Shown: positions 3,656-36,020 of the stretch, piece by piece
Numbering within the stretch: the stretch's first letter is position 1
How the letters are laid out: every line of letters begins with the position of its first letter
Source: an uncultured Candidatus Rokubacteria bacterium
Lineage (GTDB): Bacteria > Methylomirabilota > Methylomirabilia > Rokubacteriales > CSP1-6
Assembly (NCBI GenBank): GCA_963827505.1
Contig: CAWHBD010000002.1
Coordinates: 393,692 to 457,691, forward strand
DNA: 64,000 nucleotides
Reading direction: 5' to 3'
Translations under genes and position numbers: made by a program
Notes under the pieces: generated by a model
Databases searched by the model: none
Told to the model about the DNA's origin: nothing
What the model saw: only the letters and a program-made list of their open reading frames with translations

Positions 3656-4061
3656 AGGACCACATCAGCGCGGTGCGGCCGCGGACGCTGCCCAAGCCGG
3701 CCGGCTTCTCGTACGGCTACGAGGTCAAGCGGGGTCGGATCGTCTTCATCGCCGGCCAGGTTGCCCGTGACGAGCAGAACGCCCTCGTGGGCCGGGGCGA
3801 CCTCATCGTCCAGTTCCGCCAGGTCTGCCGCAACATCCAGACGGTCATGAGCGCCGCCGGTGGCGACATGACCGACATCGTGAAGCTGACGATCTACGTG
3901 CTCGATGCCAACGACTACAAGCTCCGGCTGACCGAGATCGGCACCGTTTACCGGGAGTACTTCGGCAAGCACTTCCCTGCCATGACGCTGGTCGGCGTCC
4001 GCGACCTGTTCGACGCCGCCGACGGCTGCCTCATCGAGATCGAGGGCGTCGCCGCCCTGGC

Positions 4062-4065: not shown

Positions 4066-5549
<1,484 letters not shown>

Positions 5550-5558
5550 TCGCCGAGC

Positions 5559-6284
5559 ATGCCCGCCCGTAGGCGACGGCGGCGCGGCCTCCGCCGCCTG
5601 CTCATCCTGGTCGTGCTCGCCGTCGTGGCGTGGCTCGCCTGGGAGGTGTGGGCGTGGCCCAACGTCGGCGCGCTGGCCGCGCGGCCACCAGCCACGACCG
5701 CGTTCATCGAGCGCTGGCGGGCGGCGCAGCGTCAGGCCGGGCGAAGCGATCAGATCGATCGGCGGTGGGCCGCGTACGGTTCGATCGCGCCGTCCATGAA
5801 GGTGGCGGTGCTGGTGGCCGAGGACATCAACTTCTTCTCGCATCGCGGATTCGACAGCGGCGAGATCCGCAAGGCGCTCACGCAGGCGATCGAGGAAGGC
5901 GAGCTGCCGCGGGGCGCCTCGACCATCAGCCAGCAGCTCGCCAAGAACTTGTGGCTGTCGCCCGCCCGCGACCCGCTCCGCAAGATGCGGGAGGCGATCC
6001 TGACCTGGCAGCTCGAGCGCACGCTCGGCAAGCGCCGCCTGCTCGAGCTGTACCTCAACGTCGTAGAATTCGGCCCGGGCGTGTGGGGGGTCGACAGCGC
6101 CAGCCGCCGCTACTTCGGCAAGGCGGCCGCCGACCTCGGCGACGACGAGGCGGCCCTGCTGGCCGCCGCCCTGCCGAGTCCGACCACGTGGCACCCGGGC
6201 TCCGGCAGCGTCGCGTATCGCCGCCACGCCGACAACGTACGACGCCGAATGGACAAGGCCCAGTTCCTGAGGAGGCTCATCTGA
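5559..6284 (+). CDS. mtgA: Monofunctional biosynthetic peptidoglycan transglycosylase
   Basis: 241 aa, N-terminal membrane anchor. Has the GT51 motifs EDINFFSHRGFD, GASTISQQLAKNL, RKMREAILTWQLERTLGKRRLLELYLN. Confidence 0.85.
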   Translation: MPARRRRRRGLRRLLILVVLAVVAWLAWEVWAWPNVGALAARPPATTAFIERWRAAQRQAGRSDQIDRRWAAYGSIAPSMKVAVLVAEDINFFSHRGFDSGEIRKALTQAIEEGELPRGASTISQQLAKNLWLSPARDPLRKMREAILTWQLERTLGKRRLLELYLNVVEFGPGVWGVDSASRRYFGKAAADLGDDEAALLAAALPSPTTWHPGSGSVAYRRHADNVRRRMDKAQFLRRLI

Positions 6285-7150
6285 TGGCCGCACCCGTGTT
6301 CCGTGACTACGATCAGAAGGCCCTCGACGCCGAGTACAACAATCGCGTCAAGGTCAAGAACGCCATGGACTGGATGGCCCGCGCCGGCGGCGAGAGTGCC
6401 CGGACCCGCGCCGAGCTGCCGCTCCGCTTCGACGTACCGTACGGCGCCCATCACGCCGAGCGCCTCGACATCTTCCCGGCCACGCGGCCGGGGCCGGCCC
6501 CGGTGCACGTCTTCATCCACGGGGGCTACTGGCAGCGCATGGACAAGGCCGACTTCAGCTTCGTGGCGCGCGGGCTGGGACCAGCCGGCGCCGCCACCGT
6601 CGTCATCAACTACGGCCTCGTGCCCTCGATCGACCTCGACACGCTCGTGCGGCAGTGCCGCGCCGCCGTGGCCTGGGTGCACCGTCACGCCACCGAGTGG
6701 GGCGGCGATCCCGGTCGGATCTCCATCTCCGGCCACTCGGCCGGCGGCCACCTGGTAGCCATGCTGCTCGCCACCGACTGGCCGGCGCTGGGCGTCCCCG
6801 CCGACGTCGTCAAGTCAGGGTGCGCGGTCAGCGGCCTGTACGACCTCGAGCCCATCCGCCTCTGCTATCTCAATCAGGTCCTGGCACTGACGCCCGAGGT
6901 GGCGCAGCGCAACAGTCCCGTGCTCCTGGCCCCGTCGCGGCCGACGCCGCTCATCCTGGCCCTCGGCGGCGCCGAGGGTCCCGAGTACCACCGGCAGACC
7001 GACGCCCTGGCGGCGGCGTGGCGGGCACGCGGGGTGCCGATCGAGGTGATGGACCTGCCCGGCCACGATCACTTCTCGATCGTCGCCGAGCTCGAATCGC
7101 CGTTCAGCTCGCTTGCACGCGCGATCCAGACGCAGATGGGTCTGGCCTAA
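6284..7150 (+). CDS. Alpha/beta-hydrolase fold esterase (arylformamidase / kynurenine-formamidase-like)
   Basis: Real start is MAAPVFRDYDQKALDAEYNNRVKVKNAMDW (ATG at 6284, TGATG overlap with mtgA). HGGYW oxyanion motif, nucleophile elbow GHSAGGHL, C-terminal HDHF. The long upstream extension in the ORF track (5630..) is an out-of-frame artefact. Confidence 0.8.
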   Translation: MAAPVFRDYDQKALDAEYNNRVKVKNAMDWMARAGGESARTRAELPLRFDVPYGAHHAERLDIFPATRPGPAPVHVFIHGGYWQRMDKADFSFVARGLGPAGAATVVINYGLVPSIDLDTLVRQCRAAVAWVHRHATEWGGDPGRISISGHSAGGHLVAMLLATDWPALGVPADVVKSGCAVSGLYDLEPIRLCYLNQVLALTPEVAQRNSPVLLAPSRPTPLILALGGAEGPEYHRQTDALAAAWRARGVPIEVMDLPGHDHFSIVAELESPFSSLARAIQTQMGLA

Positions 7151-7177
7151 CGTTCGGCCCGCTGGCGCGGGCGGCGC

Positions 7178-7347
7178 CGCTGGGCGGCGGGGGCGGCAGG
7201 GCGACAGGGCCTCCTGAGGTTCCGTTGGCTTCGATCGTGTAGGGCCTCACGTAGGACCAGGCTCCGACCGCGCCTTCGCGCGCCGGGTCGTCTCTCGCGG
7301 AACCGAAGGGGGCCCTGTCGCCCTGCCGCCCCCGCCGCCCACCGGCG
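7178..7347. repeat. Structured intergenic repeat, family 1, copy 1: ~38-bp self-complementary arms around a ~100-bp conserved core
   Basis: Left arm GCTGGGCGGCGGGGGCGGCAGGGCGACAGGGCC pairs with right arm GGCCCTGTCGCCCTGCCGCCCCCGCCGCCCAC. The core ...GGCTTCGATCGTGTAGGGCCTCACGTAGGACCAGGCTCCGAC... is ~90% identical to the reverse complement of 17200-17285. Lies between the convergent esterase and PQQ-dehydrogenase genes. Confidence 0.7.
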
Positions 7348-7394
7348 ATCCCGGCTGGCAGAAGGGCCAACCTCTCTCACGCGACGCGCATCGG

Positions 7395-8576
7395 TTAGCG
7401 TTCGGGCTCCAGGCGGACGATGCGGCCGTTGGGCTCGTCGGTCAGCAGGTAGATGAGGCCGTCGGGGCCTTGGCGGACGTCGCGGATGCGGGCGTTGGGT
7501 GTCAGCGTGTAGCGTTCCTCGGCGGCGACGCGGCCGTTGAGAAGGCGCAGGCGGACGAGGCCGCGGCGCTGCAGTGAGGCGAGGAACAGGTCGCCGCGCC
7601 AGGCGGGGAAGCGGTCGGCCGTGTAGAACAGGGCGCCCGAGGGCGCGATGACGGGATCCCAGTAGTAGACGGGCTGCTCCATCCCCGGGCGCGAAGTGCC
7701 GACGCCGATGCGGGTGCCGGAGTAGTCGACGCCGTAGGTGATGATCGGCCAGCCGTAGTTGCGGCCGGCGCGCGGATTGTTCAGCTCGTCACCGCCACGG
7801 GCGCCGTGCTCGGCCGTCCACAGCTCGCCCCGCGCGTCCAGGGTGGCCCCCTGCACGTTGCGGTGCCCGTATGACCAGATCTCAGGGCGGGCGCCGTCGC
7901 GGCCGACGAACGGGTTGTCGCGGGGGGCCGAGCCATCGGGGTTGATGCGCACGATCTTGCCAATGGTCACCGCCAGGTCCTGGGCGGCGTCGCGCCGGGA
8001 CAATCGGTCGCCGAGCGTGACGAACAGCGTGCCGTCGGGGCGAAACACGAGCCGCGAGCCCCAGTGGAACTCGCTGGTGACCTTAGGCACCTGGCGCCAC
8101 ACCACCTCTGTTCCTTCCAGCCCGCGCTCGCCCAGCCGTCCTCGCGCCACCGCCGTGCCGGCCCCGCCCGCTCCCGGCTCCGAGAAGGACAGGTAGACGA
8201 GCCGATCCTGGGCAAAGCTCGGGCTCAGCGCCACGTCGAGCAGGCCTCCCTGGCCGCCAGTCGCGACCCCCGGCACACCGGCCAGCGGATCGGAAAGGCG
8301 GCCGCTCGGCGCGACGAGCCGCAAGCGCCCCGCCCGCTCGGTGACGAGCAGGCGGCCGTCGGGCAGAAACGCGAGCCCCCACGGATGCTCGAGGCCGCGC
8401 ACGACGTCGATGGCGCGCGCGGGCAGCCGCACCGGGATCGGCGTGGGCGAGCGCGTCGCCTCCTGGGCAAGGGCTGGAAGCCCGAGCAGCACGATGGCGA
8501 CGATCATGCCGAGCCAGAGCTTGCGCGTCGTCGTACATCCGGTCGAGCCGAGGCGGAGAGCCGCTGGTGATGGCAT
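7395..8576 (-). CDS. PQQ-dependent soluble sugar (glucose/sorbosone) dehydrogenase, beta-propeller, secreted
   Basis: MPSPAALRLGSTGCTTTRKLWLGMIVAIVLLGLPALAQEA (signal peptide), then LEHPWGLAFLPDGRLLVTERAGRLRLV, PLAGVP, GQGGLLDVALSP, IWSYGHRNVQG, YGWPIITYG, the hallmarks of the SGDH family. The ORF-track extension above 8576 has no support. Confidence 0.8.
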   Translation of the reverse strand: MPSPAALRLGSTGCTTTRKLWLGMIVAIVLLGLPALAQEATRSPTPIPVRLPARAIDVVRGLEHPWGLAFLPDGRLLVTERAGRLRLVAPSGRLSDPLAGVPGVATGGQGGLLDVALSPSFAQDRLVYLSFSEPGAGGAGTAVARGRLGERGLEGTEVVWRQVPKVTSEFHWGSRLVFRPDGTLFVTLGDRLSRRDAAQDLAVTIGKIVRINPDGSAPRDNPFVGRDGARPEIWSYGHRNVQGATLDARGELWTAEHGARGGDELNNPRAGRNYGWPIITYGVDYSGTRIGVGTSRPGMEQPVYYWDPVIAPSGALFYTADRFPAWRGDLFLASLQRRGLVRLRLLNGRVAAEERYTLTPNARIRDVRQGPDGLIYLLTDEPNGRIVRLEPER

Positions 8577-12243: not shown

Positions 12244-12349
12244 TTGGACTGGGGGCCACGACATGGCCCCCAGACCCCCAGGTCGCTCGGGGCGCCCCGG
12301 CGGAGCCGTGGCGCCCCTCGACCTTCGGGGGTAACCTAACGCGTCCTAC

Positions 12350-15808: not shown

Positions 15809-17131
15809 ATGCGGATTCGCTTCTGGGGCACCCGCGGCTCCATCCCCAAGCCGGGCCCGGCCACCGTCCGGTACGGGGGCAATACCTCCTGCGTCGAGGT
15901 CCGGTCCGACGGCACGCTGATCGTGCTCGACTGCGGCACCGGCGCCCACGAGCTGGGCCAGCAACTCGTCACCACCTACCCCGGCCCGATGCGCGGTCAC
16001 CTGCTGATCACTCACACGCACTGGGACCATATCCAGGGCTTCCCGTTTTTCGCGCCGCTGTTCGTTTCCGGCAGCGAGTGGGACGTGTACGCGCCACGCC
16101 AGGTGGGCCGCACGTTGGAGGAGATCCTCGGCGGCCAGATGCACCGCACGTACTTTCCGGTGCCGCTCGGCGAGCTGGCCGCGACCATTCGCTACCACGA
16201 GCTGAGTGAGGGGGCCTTCAACCTCGACGCTGTCCGCGTGACCACCCGCTACATGAACCATCCGGCGCCCGCGCTCGCCTACCGGCTGGAGGCCGGAGGG
16301 GTGGCCGTCGTCTACGCCACCGACCACGAGCCCCACTCGCGCCACCATCCGGAGGCCACCGGCGAGGCCGCGCGGGTGCATCGCGAGGACGCCCGCCACA
16401 TCGAGTTCCTGGCCGGAGCCGACCTGGTGATCCACGACGCGACGTACACGCTAGAGGAGTACCCGGCCCGGCTGTCGTGGGGGCACACGCCGGCCGAGTG
16501 GGCCGTCGACTTCGCGGTGGCGGCGCGAGTCCGCCGGCTCGCCCTCTTCCACCACGAGCCGTCGCGCACCGACCGCGCCATCGACCGGCTCCTCGCCAGC
16601 TGCCGCAAGCGCCTGCCGGCCAAGGACGGCCCCGAGGTGTTCGCGGCCGCCGAGGGCCAGTACCTGGTGGTCGTGCGGCCCGGCGCCACGCCGACGTCGT
16701 CCACGCCGGTGGTCGCCTCCACGGCCGCGCGGATGGCAGCGCCAGAGAAGACGACGATCCTCGTGGCCGACGACGACCCCGACGTGATGGCGGTAATCTT
16801 GGAGACGCTGGAGCCGGAGGGCTACCGGGTCATCACGGCCACCGACGGCGACACCGCGCTGCAGCTCGCCCGCGACGAGCGGCCGGACATCGTCGTGCTC
16901 GACTGGATGATGCCGGGGCAGGACGGGCTGTCCGTGTGCCGGGCGCTGCGTCAGGAGAGCGATCCCAGGCTGGCCGAGGTTCCGGTCGTCCTCATCACCG
17001 GGCGTGCCGACGCCCAGGACACGGCAGCGGGCTTCACCGCCGGCGTGACCGACTACCTCACGAAGCCGTTCAAGCCCACGCACCTCGTCGCACGCCTGCA
17101 GTCCTGGCTCAGCCGCTCGCACAGCGGCTGA
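15809..17131 (+). CDS. MBL-fold metallo-hydrolase (RNase Z / PhnP-like) fused to a C-terminal response-regulator receiver (REC) domain
   Basis: Intact. RBS GGAGGGTGG before ATG 15809. MRIRFWGTRGSIPKPG...VLDCGTG...HLLITHTHWDHIQGFPFF (HxHxDH) in the N-terminal ~300 aa. C-terminal 120 aa: TILVADDDPDVMAVILETLEPEGYRVITATDGDTALQLARDERPDIVVLDWMMPGQDGLSVCRALRQ...VPVVLITGRAD...DYLTKPF, with the phosphoacceptor Asp in VVLDW. Confidence 0.8.
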   Translation: MRIRFWGTRGSIPKPGPATVRYGGNTSCVEVRSDGTLIVLDCGTGAHELGQQLVTTYPGPMRGHLLITHTHWDHIQGFPFFAPLFVSGSEWDVYAPRQVGRTLEEILGGQMHRTYFPVPLGELAATIRYHELSEGAFNLDAVRVTTRYMNHPAPALAYRLEAGGVAVVYATDHEPHSRHHPEATGEAARVHREDARHIEFLAGADLVIHDATYTLEEYPARLSWGHTPAEWAVDFAVAARVRRLALFHHEPSRTDRAIDRLLASCRKRLPAKDGPEVFAAAEGQYLVVVRPGATPTSSTPVVASTAARMAAPEKTTILVADDDPDVMAVILETLEPEGYRVITATDGDTALQLARDERPDIVVLDWMMPGQDGLSVCRALRQESDPRLAEVPVVLITGRADAQDTAAGFTAGVTDYLTKPFKPTHLVARLQSWLSRSHSG

Positions 17132-17157
17132 GCGCGTTCCCCCGCGCCGGCCACGCC

Positions 17158-17330
17158 GGTGCGCGGGGAGCGGGCGATGGAGCGACAGGGTCCCCTTCGG
17201 TTCCGCGAGAGACGACCCGATGCGCCGTGGCATGGTCGGAGCCTGTCCTACGTGTGGCCCTACACGATCGAAGCCAACGGACCCTCAGGAAACCCTGTCG
17301 CTCCATCGCCCGCTCCCCGCGCACCGGCGT
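17158..17330. repeat. Structured intergenic repeat, family 1, copy 2 (core inverted relative to copy 1)
   Basis: Arms CCGGTGCGCGGGGAGCGGGCGATGGAGCGACAGGGTCCCC and GGAAACCCTGTCGCTCCATCGCCCGCTCCCCGCGCACCGG form a perfect ~38-bp stem. The arm sequence differs from copy 1 (GCAGGG vs ATGGAG) but the changes are compensated on the partner arm. Core GGTTCCGCGAGAGACGACCC...GTCGGAGCCTGTCCTACGTGTGGCCCTACACGATCGAAGCCAACGG. Lies between the convergent MBL-REC and hydroxylase genes. Confidence 0.7.
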
Positions 17331-17372
17331 CCCCAACACCGCTTCAGGCGAATCTGAACTTCGGACGGCGGG

Positions 17373-19628
17373 CTACGTCGGGCGGGGGGTGAAGGTCTTC
17401 ACTGAGATGTACTGGTCGGGCCAGGGGAGGTCGAGGCCCTGGTCGCGGGCGGCGTGGCGGGTCCAGTAGGGGTCGTAGAGGTGGGCACGGGCCAGGACGC
17501 AGAGGTCGGCGCGGCCGGCGGCGATGATCGAGTTGACGTCGGCGCTGGAGGCGACGCCGCCGACGGTCATGGTCGGAATGCCGGCCTCGTGGCGGATCCG
17601 GTCGCTGAACGGCGTCTGGAACAGGCGGCCGTGATCGGGCGCCTGATCGGGCACCGTGTTGCCGGCCGACACGTCGACGATGTCACAGCCGTGGGTGCGT
17701 AGCGCGCGCGCCACCTCGACGGCATCCCTCGGCGACAGGCCGCCCTCCTTCCAGTCGGTGGCCGAGAGCCGGACCGAGATGGGCTTGGCGACAGGCCATG
17801 CCGCCCGGACGGCGTCGAAGACCTCGAGCGGGAAGCGCAGGCGGTTGGCGAGCGCGCCGCCGTAGGCATCGGCACGCCGGTTGGTGAGCGGCGACAGGAA
17901 CGACGCCAGCAGGTAGCCGTGGGCGATGTGGAGCTCGAGCAGGTCGAAGCCGGCCTCCTCGGCCATGCGGGTGGCTCGCACGAAGTCGTCGCGCACGGCG
18001 TCCATGTCCCCGCGGTCCATCTCGCGCGGGACCTGGCTGTGCGGGAAGTACGGGATCGGCGACGCCGAGATCAGCGGCCAGTTGCCCTCGGGCAAGGGCT
18101 CGTCGATGCCCTCCCACAGCCGGCGCGTGGAGCCCTTGCGCCCGGCGTGGGCGAGCTGGATGCCGATCCGGGCCGGGCTGGCGCCGTGCACGAAGTCGAC
18201 GATGCGCTTCCACGCGGCCACGTGCTCGGGCTTGTACAGGCCGGTGCAGCCAGGGCTGATGCGCCCGTCGCGGCTGACGTCGGTCATCTCCGTCATCACC
18301 AGCCCCGCCCCGCCGACCGCGCGACTGCCCAGATGCACCAGGTGCCAGTCGCCCGGCGTGCCGTCCTCGGCCGAGTACTGGCACATCGGCGAGACGACGA
18401 CGCGGTTGGACAGCACCAGTCCTCGGAGCCGGAACGGCGTGAACATCGGCGGCGGGAGCGGGGCCGCGGGCACCGTCACGCCGCTCTGCTGCGCAGCCTT
18501 CTCGGCGAGCCAGCCGTCGACCGTGGCCACGAGCTTGGCGTCGCGGGCCTTCAGGCTGTCGTGCGTCACCCGCAGGCTGCGCGTGAGCAGGCTGTAGGCG
18601 AGCTGGGCGGGCTCCAGGCGGCCGTGGTACCGCTCGGTGTGCTCGAACCACTCCAGGCTGCGCTGGGCCGCGCGCTGCAGCGCCTCGACCTGGGGCCGGC
18701 GCTCCGCCTCGTAGGCCGGCAGTGCCCGCCGCACCTCGTCGTGGGCCTGCAGGCTGCGGCTGAGAGCGATGGCGTCCTCCATCGCGAGCTTGGTGCCGGA
18801 GCCGATCGAGAAGTGCGCGGTGTGGGCGGCGTCGCCGACGAGGACGATGTTGTCGTGGTACCAGGCGTCGTTGCGGATGACCGGGAAGGCCCGCCACAGC
18901 GAGCGATTGTTCAAGATCGGATGGCCCTCCAGCTCGCGCGCGAACAGCGCCTGCGCGAACGCCACCGTGTCGTCCTCGCGGGCCTCGTCCAGGCCGGCCC
19001 GCCGCCAGGTGTCCTCCGTGCACTCGAGGATGAACGTCGAGTGGTGGCGGTCGTAGCTGTAGGCGTGCACGCGCCACAGCCCGTGCTCGTCCTCCTTGAA
19101 CATGAAGGTGAAGGCCCGGAACGGGAACGTCGTGCCGAGCCAGACGAACCGGTTGCGGCGCCAGTCGATGCGCGGCCGGAAGTGACGGGCATGGCGCTGG
19201 CGCACCCAGGAGTTCACCCCGTCGGCGGCCAGCACGAGGTCGGCCCCCGCCCACGCCTCCGGCCGATCGACCTCCGTGGAAAAGCGGAGGACCACACCCA
19301 GGTCGGTGGCCCGGGCCTGGAGGATGTCGAGCAGCCGCTGGCGGGAGAGGCCGGCGAAGCCGTGGCCGGTCGAGGTCAACACCTGCCCCCGGTAGTGGAT
19401 ATCGATGTCGTCCCAGTGGGCGAAGGCTCGGGTGATGGCGGCGTGCGTCTCAGGGTCGGCCTCGCGGAAGTTGTCGAGGGTGGCATCGGAGAAGACCACG
19501 CCGAAGCCGAAGGTGTCGTCGGAGCGATTGCGCTCGAGGACGATCACCTCGTGGGCCGGATCGGCCCTCTTCATCAAGATCGCGAGGTACAGGCCGGCCG
19601 GCCCGCCGCCGATCGAGACGATCTTCAC
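17373..19628 (-). CDS. Bifunctional FAD-dependent aromatic monooxygenase / Old Yellow Enzyme oxidoreductase (salicylyl-CoA 5-hydroxylase-like), 751 aa
   Basis: Intact. N-terminus [19 protein letters not shown] (GxGxxG FAD fold)...[27 protein letters not shown] (flavoprotein hydroxylase). C-terminal ~350 aa OYE domain: [42 protein letters not shown]...[12 protein letters not shown]...[26 protein letters not shown]. The domain order matches the gentisate-pathway salicylyl-CoA 5-hydroxylase type. Confidence 0.75.
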
Positions 19629-28910: not shown

Positions 28911-29645
28911 CTACGGCCGGCGGATCACCAGCCGGTAGCCCAGGTCCAGCTCCTCGAGGTCCAGCAGGTCGGCGTGGCGCCGACGCCAGGTGCCGTCGGC
29001 GAGATCACGATGCAGCCGGGCCAGGCCGGGTTCGGCGTCGCCCAGCTTGCTGAACGTCGACATCGCCCCGCGCACGCCGGGATCGAGGTAGGCCTCCGGG
29101 CGCCGCCAGTAGGCGCCGACGAAGCCGTCCGTGCAGTCGTGCGGCACCGGCACCGGCCGGACCTCGATCGGCCCCAGCCGGCGACGCAGCTCGTCCAGCG
29201 TCGGGAAGATGGGCCGGTCGATCGCCCAGATGCCAGGGAAATATTCGTCGACGAGCCAGAAGCGCGGCGTGGCCGGATCCCACGTCAGCAACACCACGCA
29301 TGCGGCGACGCGGGCGAGCTCGGCCAGGCCCCGGGTGCGGTCCGGCCAGTGGTGCACCGTCAGTATGGCCAGCGTCGCGTCGAAGGCGGCGTCGCGGAAC
29401 GGCAGGTCCGTGGCTGACGCTTGCAGGGCCGGCGCGGCGCCGGGCGGCCGCTGGGCGATCATGGCCGCCGAGGGCTCGACGGCGACCACCCGGCGCCCGC
29501 CCGGCTCGTAGGAGCCGGCGCCGGCTCCCACGTTGACGATCGTGACCGCCTCGCCGAGGGCGGCGTCGATGGCCGCGGCTACCCGCGCATCCGGCCGCCG
29601 GTAGGCGCCGTAGCCGCGGCCGATGCGGTCGTAGAGCTCCGCCAC
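28911..29645 (-). CDS. Class I SAM-dependent methyltransferase
   Basis: VAELYDRIGRGYGAYR...TIVNVGAGAGSYEP (motif I), AFDATLAILTVHHWPD. GTG start. The longer ORF-track extension to 29762 has no support. Confidence 0.65.
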   Translation of the reverse strand: MAELYDRIGRGYGAYRRPDARVAAAIDAALGEAVTIVNVGAGAGSYEPGGRRVVAVEPSAAMIAQRPPGAAPALQASATDLPFRDAAFDATLAILTVHHWPDRTRGLAELARVAACVVLLTWDPATPRFWLVDEYFPGIWAIDRPIFPTLDELRRRLGPIEVRPVPVPHDCTDGFVGAYWRRPEAYLDPGVRGAMSTFSKLGDAEPGLARLHRDLADGTWRRRHADLLDLEELDLGYRLVIRRP

Positions 29646-34043: not shown

Positions 34044-34448
34044 ATGCCCCACCAGCCGACCGCCGCCACCGAATTCCGGCGCGGCCTGAATGGCTACAAC
34101 CTGACGGTCGGCCTGATCGCGTCGCTCGCGCTCGGCGGGGCCGTACTACTGGCGACTGCGACCGGCCTCGGCCCCGACCTGCTCGGCCGCGGCGCCGCGC
34201 CGCAAGCCGCCGTCGCCGCACTCGCCCTCTTCGTGGTGATCACTGCCATCCACACGGCCGTGCACACCTACCTCGGCTGGCGCTTCGACCGCGGCATCCG
34301 GGCCGCCACCGCCGGCGACCACCCCCGCGCCGTCCGCCTCCTCATCCCCGTCACCCGTCCCGGCCTGGACCACTATGACCCCGACGGCACCGCCCGCCAC
34401 ACCCTGGAATCGAGCCGCGCCGAAGTTCAGCGAACCGCCCGCCGCTAG
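34044..34448 (+). CDS. Hypothetical membrane protein (2 predicted TM helices)
   Basis: 134 aa, hydrophobic segments LTVGLIASLALGGAVLLATA and AVAALALFVVITAIHTAV. Coding-like GC3 bias. No family recognised. Confidence 0.35.
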   Translation: MPHQPTAATEFRRGLNGYNLTVGLIASLALGGAVLLATATGLGPDLLGRGAAPQAAVAALALFVVITAIHTAVHTYLGWRFDRGIRAATAGDHPRAVRLLIPVTRPGLDHYDPDGTARHTLESSRAEVQRTARR

Positions 34449-34459
34449 TCTCCCTGGTC

Positions 34460-34665
34460 GATGATTCGCCCCCCGGGTTGCGGTGGGGGAGTCCGGTGCT
34501 CGGGGTGGGGTCCGTGGACCCGTTCCCGCCAACCATCACCGTACGCCCCCCAGCCTGATGGAGCCCAGCCGCCAACGGCCCGATGCGGACTCCAGCCCCG
34601 TGGTGCCACGGACCCCACCCCGAGCACCGGACTCCTCCACCGCAACACGGGCCGGACGAATCGCC
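34460..34665. repeat. Large inverted repeat / hairpin element: ~57-bp arms, 88-bp spacer
   Basis: GATGATTCGCCCCCCGGGTTGCGGTGGGGGAGTCCGGTGCTCGGGGTGGGGTCCGTGG (34460-34517) is near-perfectly complementary to CCACGGACCCCACCCCGAGCACCGGACTCCTCCACCGCAACACGGGCCGGACGAATCGCC (34606-34665). It sits 12 nt after the stop of the + gene and 11 nt before the stop of the convergent amidase. Confidence 0.65.
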
Positions 34666-34675
34666 GCTCCGGAGA

Positions 34676-36020
34676 CTAGGCGGCGGGCGAGACCGCTCCC
34701 ACCAGCCAGCGTGCGGTGCGCAGGAGACGCGCATCGCCGTGGCGAGGCCCGACGAGCTGGACACCGAGCGGCAGGCCGTTAGCGCCGCGCATGATGGGCA
34801 CGCTGATGGCGGGCATCCCGGCGAGCGTCCACAGCGCGCAGAAGGCCGGATCGCCGGTCGAGTCGAGTCCCGCCGGCGCCGTGCCGGGGGCGGCCGGGGT
34901 CAGGATGGCGTCGTAACGCTGCTCGAACAGCTCCGTGAAGCTCGCCTGCAGCTCGGGGATGCGGGCCAGCGCGCGCAGGTAGTGGGGGGCGCGCACCTCG
35001 TGGCCGCGCTCGATGCTGGCCCGCAGCGAGTTCGACAGCCCCGCCCGTCCGGTCCGCCATTCCCGGTCGAGGTTCACCGCCAGCTCGGCGTTCATGATGG
35101 TGCGATGCCACTCGGCCGTCTCCGCGGCCGGCCTCACCAGCTCCACCTCCTCTAGGCGATCGCCGAGCACGGCGGCCAGCTCCTCGAAGGCCTCGCGGGC
35201 GTCGGGGTCGACCGCGTCCCACATCGTCGTCTTCACGAAAGCGAACATCGGCGGCAGCGGGGGCTCCTCGCCAGCGAGCTGCCGGTAGGGCACACGCGCG
35301 CGTGGCCGGGTGTCGGGATCACGCTCGTCGTGGCCGGCCAGCTGCTCCAGTAAGCAGAGCGAGATCGTCGATGGAGCGCGCGAACAGCCCCACGTGATCC
35401 AGCGTGCGCGAGAGCTGGAACATGCCGTGGCGCGGAATCAGCCCGTGGGTCGGCTTGAGGCCGTACACGCCGCAGTAGGAGGCGGGCCGGATGGTGGAGC
35501 CGCCGGTCTGGCTGCCGAGCGCCAGCGGGACCATGCCCGCCGCCACCGCCGCCGCCGAGCCGCTCGACGATCCACCCGGCGTGTGGGCCGGGTCGTGCGG
35601 GTTGCGCGTCTTGCCCGGCTGTCGCGTCGCGAACTCCGTGGTCACCGTCTTGCCCAGGATGACCGCGCCCGCCCCCCGCAGCATCGCCGTCACGCTCGCG
35701 TCCCGGGAAGGCGTCCGGCCGGCGTGCAGCACCGAGCCGTTCTCGGTCGGCATGTCGGCGGTGTCGATGATGTCCTTCAAGGCCACCGGCACGCCGTGCA
35801 GCGGCCCGATCACTCGGCCCGACATCCGCGCCTCGTCCGCCGCCCTCGCCTGCCCCAGCGCCAGCTCCGGGTCCAGGAAGGTCCACGCCTCGACGTCCCG
35901 ATCGACGGCCCGGATGCGCGCCAGGCACGCCTCGACCAGCTGCTCCGAGCTGATCACCCCATCCCGAATCAGCCGCGCCCCCTCCCCCGCCGACACCGCA
36001 TACAGATCCGTCAAATCCAT
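34676..36020 (-). pseudogene. Amidase (amidase-signature family, GatA-like), single frameshift near 35325-35345
   Basis: N-terminal 233 aa intact, including the GGSSSGSAAAVAAG signature and VPVALKDII. The C-terminal 200 aa sit in the other frame (…GLPLGVQLVGPRHGDARLL). A 1-nt indel at ...IDDLALL|LEQLAGHDERDP. Confidence 0.6.

Follow-up and report, generated by a model that had tools for sequence, protein, structure and literature searches.

What is the palindromic sequence that separates two convergent genes around positions 7178 to 7347 of this stretch: a structured RNA, a gene-end signal or a mobile repeat? The window, by which we mean the whole stretch of DNA that was analysed (64 kb, GC content 71.5%), holds two copies of it, called copy 1 and copy 2 below. 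The palindromic repeat is a previously undescribed family of a familiar kind of element, and not a new RNA gene. Our preferred reading, to which we give a probability of about two in three, is that both copies are dispersed, non-autonomous palindromic mobile repeats of the MITE or REP-like type, apparently found in Rokubacteria only, that target CTAG.

Results

Copy 1 forms a long hairpin between two convergent genes

Copy 1 is flanked on its left by an esterase-like alpha/beta hydrolase gene on the plus strand (6284–7150; Pfam BD-FAE/Abhydrolase_3; TAA stop at 7148–7150), which has a 288-aa ortholog in the recovered loci L076, L077 and L078. On its right lies a PQQ-dependent glucose/sorbosone dehydrogenase (GSDH) gene on the minus strand (7395–8576; Pfam GSDH, E = 2e-136; stop at 7395–7397), matched by the database protein P0001 (393 aa, 100% identical over the aligned region). 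The siting between the stop codons of a convergent esterase and PQQ-dehydrogenase pair, proposed in the preliminary description, is thus supported by Pfam, with the two genes ending at 7150 (+) and 7395 (−).

Between these genes, two arms of 50 nt (7175–7224 and 7298–7347), 92% complementary and separated by 73 nt, fold with an energy of −144.9 kcal/mol (z = −9.6 relative to shuffled sequences). The near-perfect inverted repeat of 33–38 bp reported earlier at the ends of the element is therefore real as an inverted repeat, and its stem is longer than stated. From the inverted repeat and the covarying stem we delimit a 5′ arm at 7175–7214 and a 3′ arm at 7308–7347, both given on the plus strand. 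The fold and the alignments place a 3 × 3 internal loop above them, with UGA at 7215–7217 facing GAA at 7305–7307; tandem G.A pairs are possible there on the plus strand, and some other copies are fully paired at this position. The loop leads into a conserved non-palindromic core at 7218–7304, whose sense strand is the plus strand according to the covariance model R1.

The size of ~170 bp given at first is an underestimate, since full-length copies measure about 250 bp, and the degenerate outer-arm sequence of copy 1 itself extends to ~7390. From the alignments, the outer 5′ flank (7151–7183, plus strand), which includes a small hairpin (GCCCGC-TGGC-GCGGGC), probably represents an outer 5′ arm that has degenerated; it is present in L076, which lacks the centre of the element, so that the outermost 5′ bases of the apparent stem (~7175–7183) also occur in a relative without the remainder of the element. 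On the other side, alignment to full-length copies identifies 7348–7394 (plus strand) as an outer 3′ part with a degenerate terminal motif, reaching to the GSDH stop codon. In this part, CCAACCTCTCTCACGCGAC at ~7368–7386 shares 13 of 19 positions with the terminus of the family, CGAATCTCTGACTCGGGAC; copy 1 thus has a degenerate 3′ terminus and no recognisable 5′ terminus.

As had been supposed, no known RNA family was recognised: at gathering thresholds, Rfam 15 has no match anywhere in the window. Searched by E-value, it returned only generic plant miRNA hairpins, MIR8670 and MIR5084, which we discarded as generic long hairpins scoring ~30 bits against cut-offs of 110–150.

Copy 2, copy number and host range

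The preliminary description had noted that the core is ~90% identical to the reverse complement of 17197–17290. This sequence is part of an inverted second copy, recognisable over 17153–17330, with long core stretches identical to those of copy 1. In full, copy 2 spans 17137–17368 with its sense on the minus strand (R1, 157 bits), with arms of 53 nt at 17153–17205 and 17278–17330 that are 91% complementary and a core at 17199–17284; as reverse complement it is 86% identical to copy 1 over 232 columns. It also lies between convergent genes, a metallo-beta-lactamase-fold and response-regulator gene on the plus strand (15809–17131; Pfam; 440-aa orthologs) and a FAD-binding/NADH:flavin oxidoreductase gene on the minus strand (17373–19628; Pfam). 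This copy has a single terminus: the terminal motif of the family is kept at 17347–17368 (reverse complement CCGTCCGAAGTTCAGATTCGCC), just inward of the stop codon of the oxidoreductase gene, a TAG (CTA at 17373–17375).

Scanning the whole 64-kb window with the unfiltered covariance model R1 yields these two copies only, with 163 and 157 bits. A further match at 29428–29516 was rejected, being a weak blastn match to GC-rich arm sequence within a coding region that appears neither with nhmmer nor with the covariance model.

Beyond the window, an 18-mer from the core matched 75 genome loci, of which ~30 are true copies by nhmmer. All of the true copies lie in three Rokubacteria/Methylomirabilia metagenome-assembled genomes (MAGs), CAVTGC01, JBGQLG01 and CAVUPM01; over 7.5 kb, the window is 90–95% identical in nucleotides to CAVTGC010000012.1, which places its source among the Rokubacteria. 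Matches of the 18-mer outside Rokubacteria are due to chance and lack core homology. A pattern built on the other core blocks recovered 68 soil-metagenome contigs, with many of the matches at contig ends, which is expected of repeats that break assemblies. In total, about 100 copies were recovered, all from Rokubacteria (Methylomirabilota) MAGs or soil metagenomes, and the number per genome is modest, ~10–20 by exact 18-mer count. No copy was found in viral contigs, where three matches are chance matches without core homology, or in plasmids, where one 41-nt match concerns GC-rich arm sequence in a Streptomyces plasmid.

Seen from the window alone, with its two copies, the repeat could pass for a simple local duplication, an explanation that the preliminary description had reserved for the case that no other copies existed. 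We reject it: the roughly 100 copies sit in unrelated genomic contexts, in several genomes and metagenomes.

Inverted termini are flanked by CTAG

Full-length copies have arms of 64–94 nt and end in inverted termini in which CTAG is directly followed by TGTCCCGAGTCAGAGATTCG. Many copies carry this motif, with up to 3 mismatches, at one end or at both; paired ends are inverted and 215–245 bp apart. Of 31 termini, 15 have CTAG immediately before TGTCCCGAG, and most of the remaining ones are one mismatch away from it; the background frequency of CTAG is 0.34 per kb. Beyond the terminal CTAG there is no sequence conservation. Note that CTAG is present at both ends of the element and, being palindromic, may represent either a target-site duplication or simply more of the inverted repeat; at the empty sites L078, L147 and L153, sequence divergence obscures the junctions.

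In ~0.8 Mb of recovered loci we found neither an autonomous element with matching termini kilobases apart nor a transposase gene. One candidate for an autonomous or composite element, L118 (Ga0137420_1486226), carries two half-copies facing each other 5 kb apart; it was rejected because the whole 7.5-kb contig is a near-perfect self-palindrome, that is, an assembly artefact. At another locus (L051, 4955–5030), four tandem CAGAGAYTCGTCGGC-like units resembling the terminal motif lie directly 5′ of a copy of the family.

Copies accumulate at the 3′ ends of convergent genes

After filtering of the ORFs on third-position GC content, 25 of the 30 copies that could be scored on both sides are located between convergent genes, and the element is abutted by gene ends 97 times versus 11 times by gene starts. 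TAG makes up 62% of the abutting stop codons, as compared to 43% of all ORFs scored. As a separate observation, this 43% of ORFs with a TAG stop, obtained with the same filter on the Rokubacteria loci, is in itself unusually high for genomes of ~70% GC.

The hairpin is not followed by a T/U tract on either strand, the sequence after both arms being GC-rich. No terminator-like site was detected in 7000–7500, and no promoter-like site at copy 1.

Orthologous sites are filled, empty or otherwise occupied

At the copy 1 site, L077 (CAVTGC contig_49752; GSDH 89% identical) is filled, with near-identical arms, and L078 (84% identical) is empty, its 44-nt spacer bearing no similarity to the arms. In L076 (98% identical), the 175-bp segment corresponding to 7184–7358 (plus strand) is absent, and the outer flanks, including the terminus-like stretch, are kept. 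The limits of this segment coincide with direct repeats, CTGG at 7180–7183 and at 7355–7358 (G[C/G]TGG). Judging from these sequences, we read the L076 state as a probable internal deletion associated with the palindrome, for which the CTGG repeats look like deletion microhomology. We discarded the other reading of L076, a virgin site with a 4–5-bp (G)CTGG target-site duplication, on the grounds that remnants of the outer arm and of the terminal motif are kept there and that the more distant L077 shares the insertion, arms included. L077 itself shows a variant core (3776–3867): its middle block is flipped with respect to the outer two, the inversion having apparently taken place between short AGGCC/GGCCT inverted repeats. 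The recovered loci contain this variant only once.

At the copy 2 site, L056 is filled with an element whose core is that of copy 2 save for a few changes, mostly in the variable segment described below. The flanking gene ends are ~97% identical to those of the window, and the arms differ at about one third of their positions, nearly all of these differences preserving the pairing. We do not attribute them to slow compensatory evolution, since gene conversion, a replaced copy or a separate insertion at a hot spot could account for them as well. This locus (CAVTGC) also has an extra ~52 nt between the element and the oxidoreductase stop codon (4470–4525) that the window does not have. The site is empty in L147, where the spacer is 9 nt, and in L153, where the genes overlap, and in L148–L152 the spacer holds a different small repeat. 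That small repeat consists of a hairpin, GGGGGGCCCCGAAATGGCCCCCC, followed by CGGCGCGCCCCGGCACAGCCGTGGCGCGCCTCGATA, is sometimes in tandem, and lies downstream of the response-regulator gene in L148–L152; the window has one diverged copy of it at ~12250–12325. As orthologous spacers are thus filled, empty or otherwise occupied, they are hot spots of repeat gain, loss and replacement.

The core is invariant and the arms are variable but paired

The core of ~85 nt is composed of three near-invariant blocks, GGTTCCGTTGGCTTCGATCGTGTA, GTAGGACCAGGCTCCGACC and GTCTC[T/A]CGCGGAACC, with pairwise identities of 94–98% that hold also in copies not selected by the block concerned. It also includes a variable segment (7270–7289 in copy 1), for which identity between copies falls to 69%, and two GTAG tetranucleotides. 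The conservation is block-wise and shows no codon periodicity, and the copies, 170–260 bp in size, sit between stop codons. Most likely, the invariant core is a putative protein recognition site.

The arms, by comparison, are only 70–75% identical between copies and remain paired within each copy: 96.6% of the cells in the long stem are paired versus 85.5% in shuffled controls, and sliding the 3′ partner by 1–3 columns brings the value down to 35–51%. Two-sided changes affect 32 of 49 pairs (288 cells versus 54 in shuffles), and arm indels are matched on both sides in L073, L064, L012 and L066. Such covariation is no proof of an RNA, because a DNA palindrome explains it equally well. The complementarity of the arms could be kept either by arm-on-arm repair in an extruded hairpin or by selection for the hairpin or a folded intermediate.

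Within the core no covariation was detected. The three 3-bp helices proposed by RNAalifold are invariant across the alignment and, as they never vary, they receive no structural support; other candidate core hairpins were rejected, their 3′ halves varying without compensation. As for the strand, R1 scores copy 1 at 163 bits on plus versus 57 bits on minus. On the sense strand, wobble pairs number 63 versus 24 A.C mismatches, a U.G pair is conserved and the internal loop allows tandem G.A pairs. These sense-strand features give a weak hint that one strand folds functionally; we did not retain the wobble bias as evidence for an RNA, as the excess of 63 over 24 arises from a few inherited positions.

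Related long-hairpin families

Two other long-hairpin families share the architecture described above. One is present in the window at 34444–34680, with 46-nt arms (34472–34517 and 34606–34651) around a different core of 88 nt. Its outer ends, CTAGTCTCCCTGGTCGATGATTCG and CGAATCGCCGCTCCGGAGACTAG, resemble the termini of the family studied here, and its terminal CTAGs contain the TAG stops of the two convergent ORFs. Weak relatives of it occur in L139 (6438–6561) and L132 (2094–2221). The other family occurs in the same MAGs (L006, 6509–6781; L030, 6345–6619; L038, 6448–6727), with arms of 74–82 nt and a core of ~120 nt that contains CCAGCCCCC(T/A)CTGGGGGATGGGGGG; the window has none of it.

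Discussion

The MITE-like mobile element that figured among the initial candidates is supported by the ~100 dispersed copies, by the inverted termini flanked by CTAG, and by orthologous sites that are filled, empty or otherwise occupied. The family has several of the features by which MITEs are recognised: a small non-coding sequence, well under ~600 bp, shared inverted termini, many dispersed copies and presence/absence polymorphism. In the scenario that we propose, the element would insert at CTAG, with duplication of TA or CTAG, by means of a DDE transposase supplied in trans, of either the IS630/Tc1-mariner or the IS5 type; IS5-type elements with a 4-bp CTAG duplication fit the CTAG flanks as well as IS630 does. 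CTAG is rare at 71% GC and would presumably be found mostly at C-TAG stop codons, where its duplication could regenerate a TAG stop for both convergent genes. Selection would remove insertions elsewhere, and the survivors would pile up between convergent genes, where they are presumably harmless. Once settled, the palindrome may be kept paired through arm-to-arm correction or through selection for hairpin formation, and would readily suffer internal deletion or be replaced. Transcription running on from the neighbouring gene on either side is predicted to leave a very stable, GC-rich hairpin in the 3′ UTR, which might block exonucleases or polymerase; the position makes a role as terminator or RNA stabiliser plausible. 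Note that conservation is reversed with respect to a typical MITE, the core being invariant, the termini moderately conserved and the arms variable yet paired, which hints at a function or mechanism beyond the binding of a transposase to the ends.

Could the repeat instead be a module selected by the host at gene 3′ ends, that is, a bidirectional terminator or a hairpin that stabilises or processes RNA, with the core as an RNA site bound by a protein and with mobility secondary or due to recombination? The strong bias to gene 3′ ends and convergent pairs, the extreme stability of the hairpin, core blocks that stay 94–98% identical while the arms drift, and the sense-strand features (tandem G.A, U.G pair, 63 wobble pairs versus 24 A.C) would all suit such a module. 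However, a CTAG target combined with purifying selection explains the location bias as well, a handful of inherited positions dominates the wobble excess, and there is neither a T/U tract after the stem nor a terminator-like site. Moreover, close relatives with the same convergent genes lack the element at this site, once even with overlapping gene ends, and the module is therefore dispensable; and the orthologous site in L077 keeps the arms but has a rearranged core. We regard this explanation as unlikely. A reading in which the repeat goes beyond a decaying MITE and is a mobile cassette for gene 3′ ends is quite doubtful: the 85-nt core would be a functional RNA or DNA module (protein-binding or catalytic), the arms would be re-templated from each other at each generation, for example on a folded single strand or by repair within the hairpin, and duplication of CTAG would regenerate both TAG stops. 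Re-templating would explain how the arms can be hypervariable yet paired and, if this were true, Rokubacteria would spread bidirectional gene-end structures by transposition.

The conservation of pairing rather than of arm sequence is also what is expected of a folded single-strand substrate, and with it comes the possibility that the repeat is REPIN-like and not a MITE derived from a DDE element, a Y1 transposase (RAYT or IS200-IS605 type) recognising the hairpin and moving the repeat as single-stranded DNA. The two GTAG tetranucleotides in the core, a hallmark of REP heads, and the slight asymmetry in favour of sense-strand folding point the same way. We nevertheless hold it to be quite improbable, given arms of 45–95 nt around an asymmetric 85-nt core, a loop that is more conserved than the arms, conserved CTAG-flanked inverted termini that are typical of DDE elements, and no RAYT gene seen among the recovered loci. 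Less credible still is an independent structured RNA gene (an sRNA, a ribozyme or a protein-sponge RNA) that displays a functional core on a long stem, although the core blocks are near-invariant across genomes, R1 prefers one strand by 163 versus 57 bits and the stem covaries very strongly. The independent sRNA that had been envisaged at the outset is not supported for an element that has no promoter-like site and no Rfam match, whose predicted core helices are invariant and whose covariation, confined to the long stem, is equally expected of a DNA palindrome; many copies, polymorphic insertions and termini with CTAG are what characterises transposable DNA.

How does the CTAG-targeting mobile repeat that we favour relate to known systems? 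Among bacterial MITEs, the Correia elements (CREE/NEMIS) of Neisseria and RUP of Streptococcus pneumoniae have been ascribed to transposition of the IS630/Tc1-mariner type. The Rokubacteria element resembles them in being small (they measure about 100–250 bp), non-coding and multi-copy, with inverted termini; they insert at TA and are often co-transcribed as long hairpins, and the termini of the Rokubacteria element are flanked by CTAG. IS630 prefers TA within 5′-CTAG-3′ (Tenzen & Ohtsubo, 1991, as cited in PMC2170065). Unlike Correia and RUP, the Rokubacteria element has its highest conservation in the internal core and its arms are hypervariable yet paired, its stems are much longer and more GC-rich, and it is strictly sited at the stop codons of convergent genes. 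No sequence similarity to them was seen in this comparison of layout and siting. With REP and REPIN elements, which reportedly have RAYT transposases of their own, it shares the character of an extragenic palindrome at gene 3′ ends or between convergent genes, with hairpin pairing maintained and a distribution limited to one lineage. REP units, however, are 20–40 nt long with conserved arms, and REPIN loops are short and variable, whereas the Rokubacteria element has an invariant, asymmetric loop or core of 85 nt and variable arms of 45–95 nt; doublets of 20–40-nt imperfect palindromes with a GTAG head around a short loop, the layout that defines REP/REPIN, are not found in it.

ERIC/IRU and YPAL-type sequences are enterobacterial intergenic palindromes of 127–170 bp. 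Like the Rokubacteria element, they are imperfect palindromes of about this length that lie in transcribed intergenic regions, their mobility is uncertain, and an effect on mRNA stability has been proposed; they belong to another phylum and differ in sequence, ERIC copies are conserved along their whole length, and evidence for recent gain and loss is clearer for the Rokubacteria element. Intrinsic (Rho-independent) bidirectional terminators are also GC-rich hairpins between convergent stop codons, but they have stems of 5–15 bp, as compared to 45–95 bp here, and the Rokubacteria element, a repeated and mobile sequence, carries an 85-nt conserved core at its apex and no U-tract on either strand, so that the GC-rich stem-loop directly followed by a T/U run by which such terminators are defined is not present. 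Overall, the Rokubacteria family differs from Correia/RUP, REP/REPIN and ERIC by its invariant asymmetric core, its hypervariable paired arms and its very long GC-rich stems. A search of the literature for repeats in Rokubacteria or Methylomirabilota turned up no account of any.

Rokubacteria are uncultured soil bacteria with large genomes, and repeats of this kind break short-read assemblies. With this family and at least two sister families described, annotation and assembly in the phylum gain a marker. The family also documents an inversion of the usual conservation pattern of mobile elements, with an asymmetric core that is invariant and arms that change fast yet stay paired. The siting at stop codons of convergent genes may follow from a simple rule, a CTAG target in a high-GC genome. 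Should the hairpin act on transcripts, the family would illustrate the spread of gene-end structures in a phylum without known terminators.
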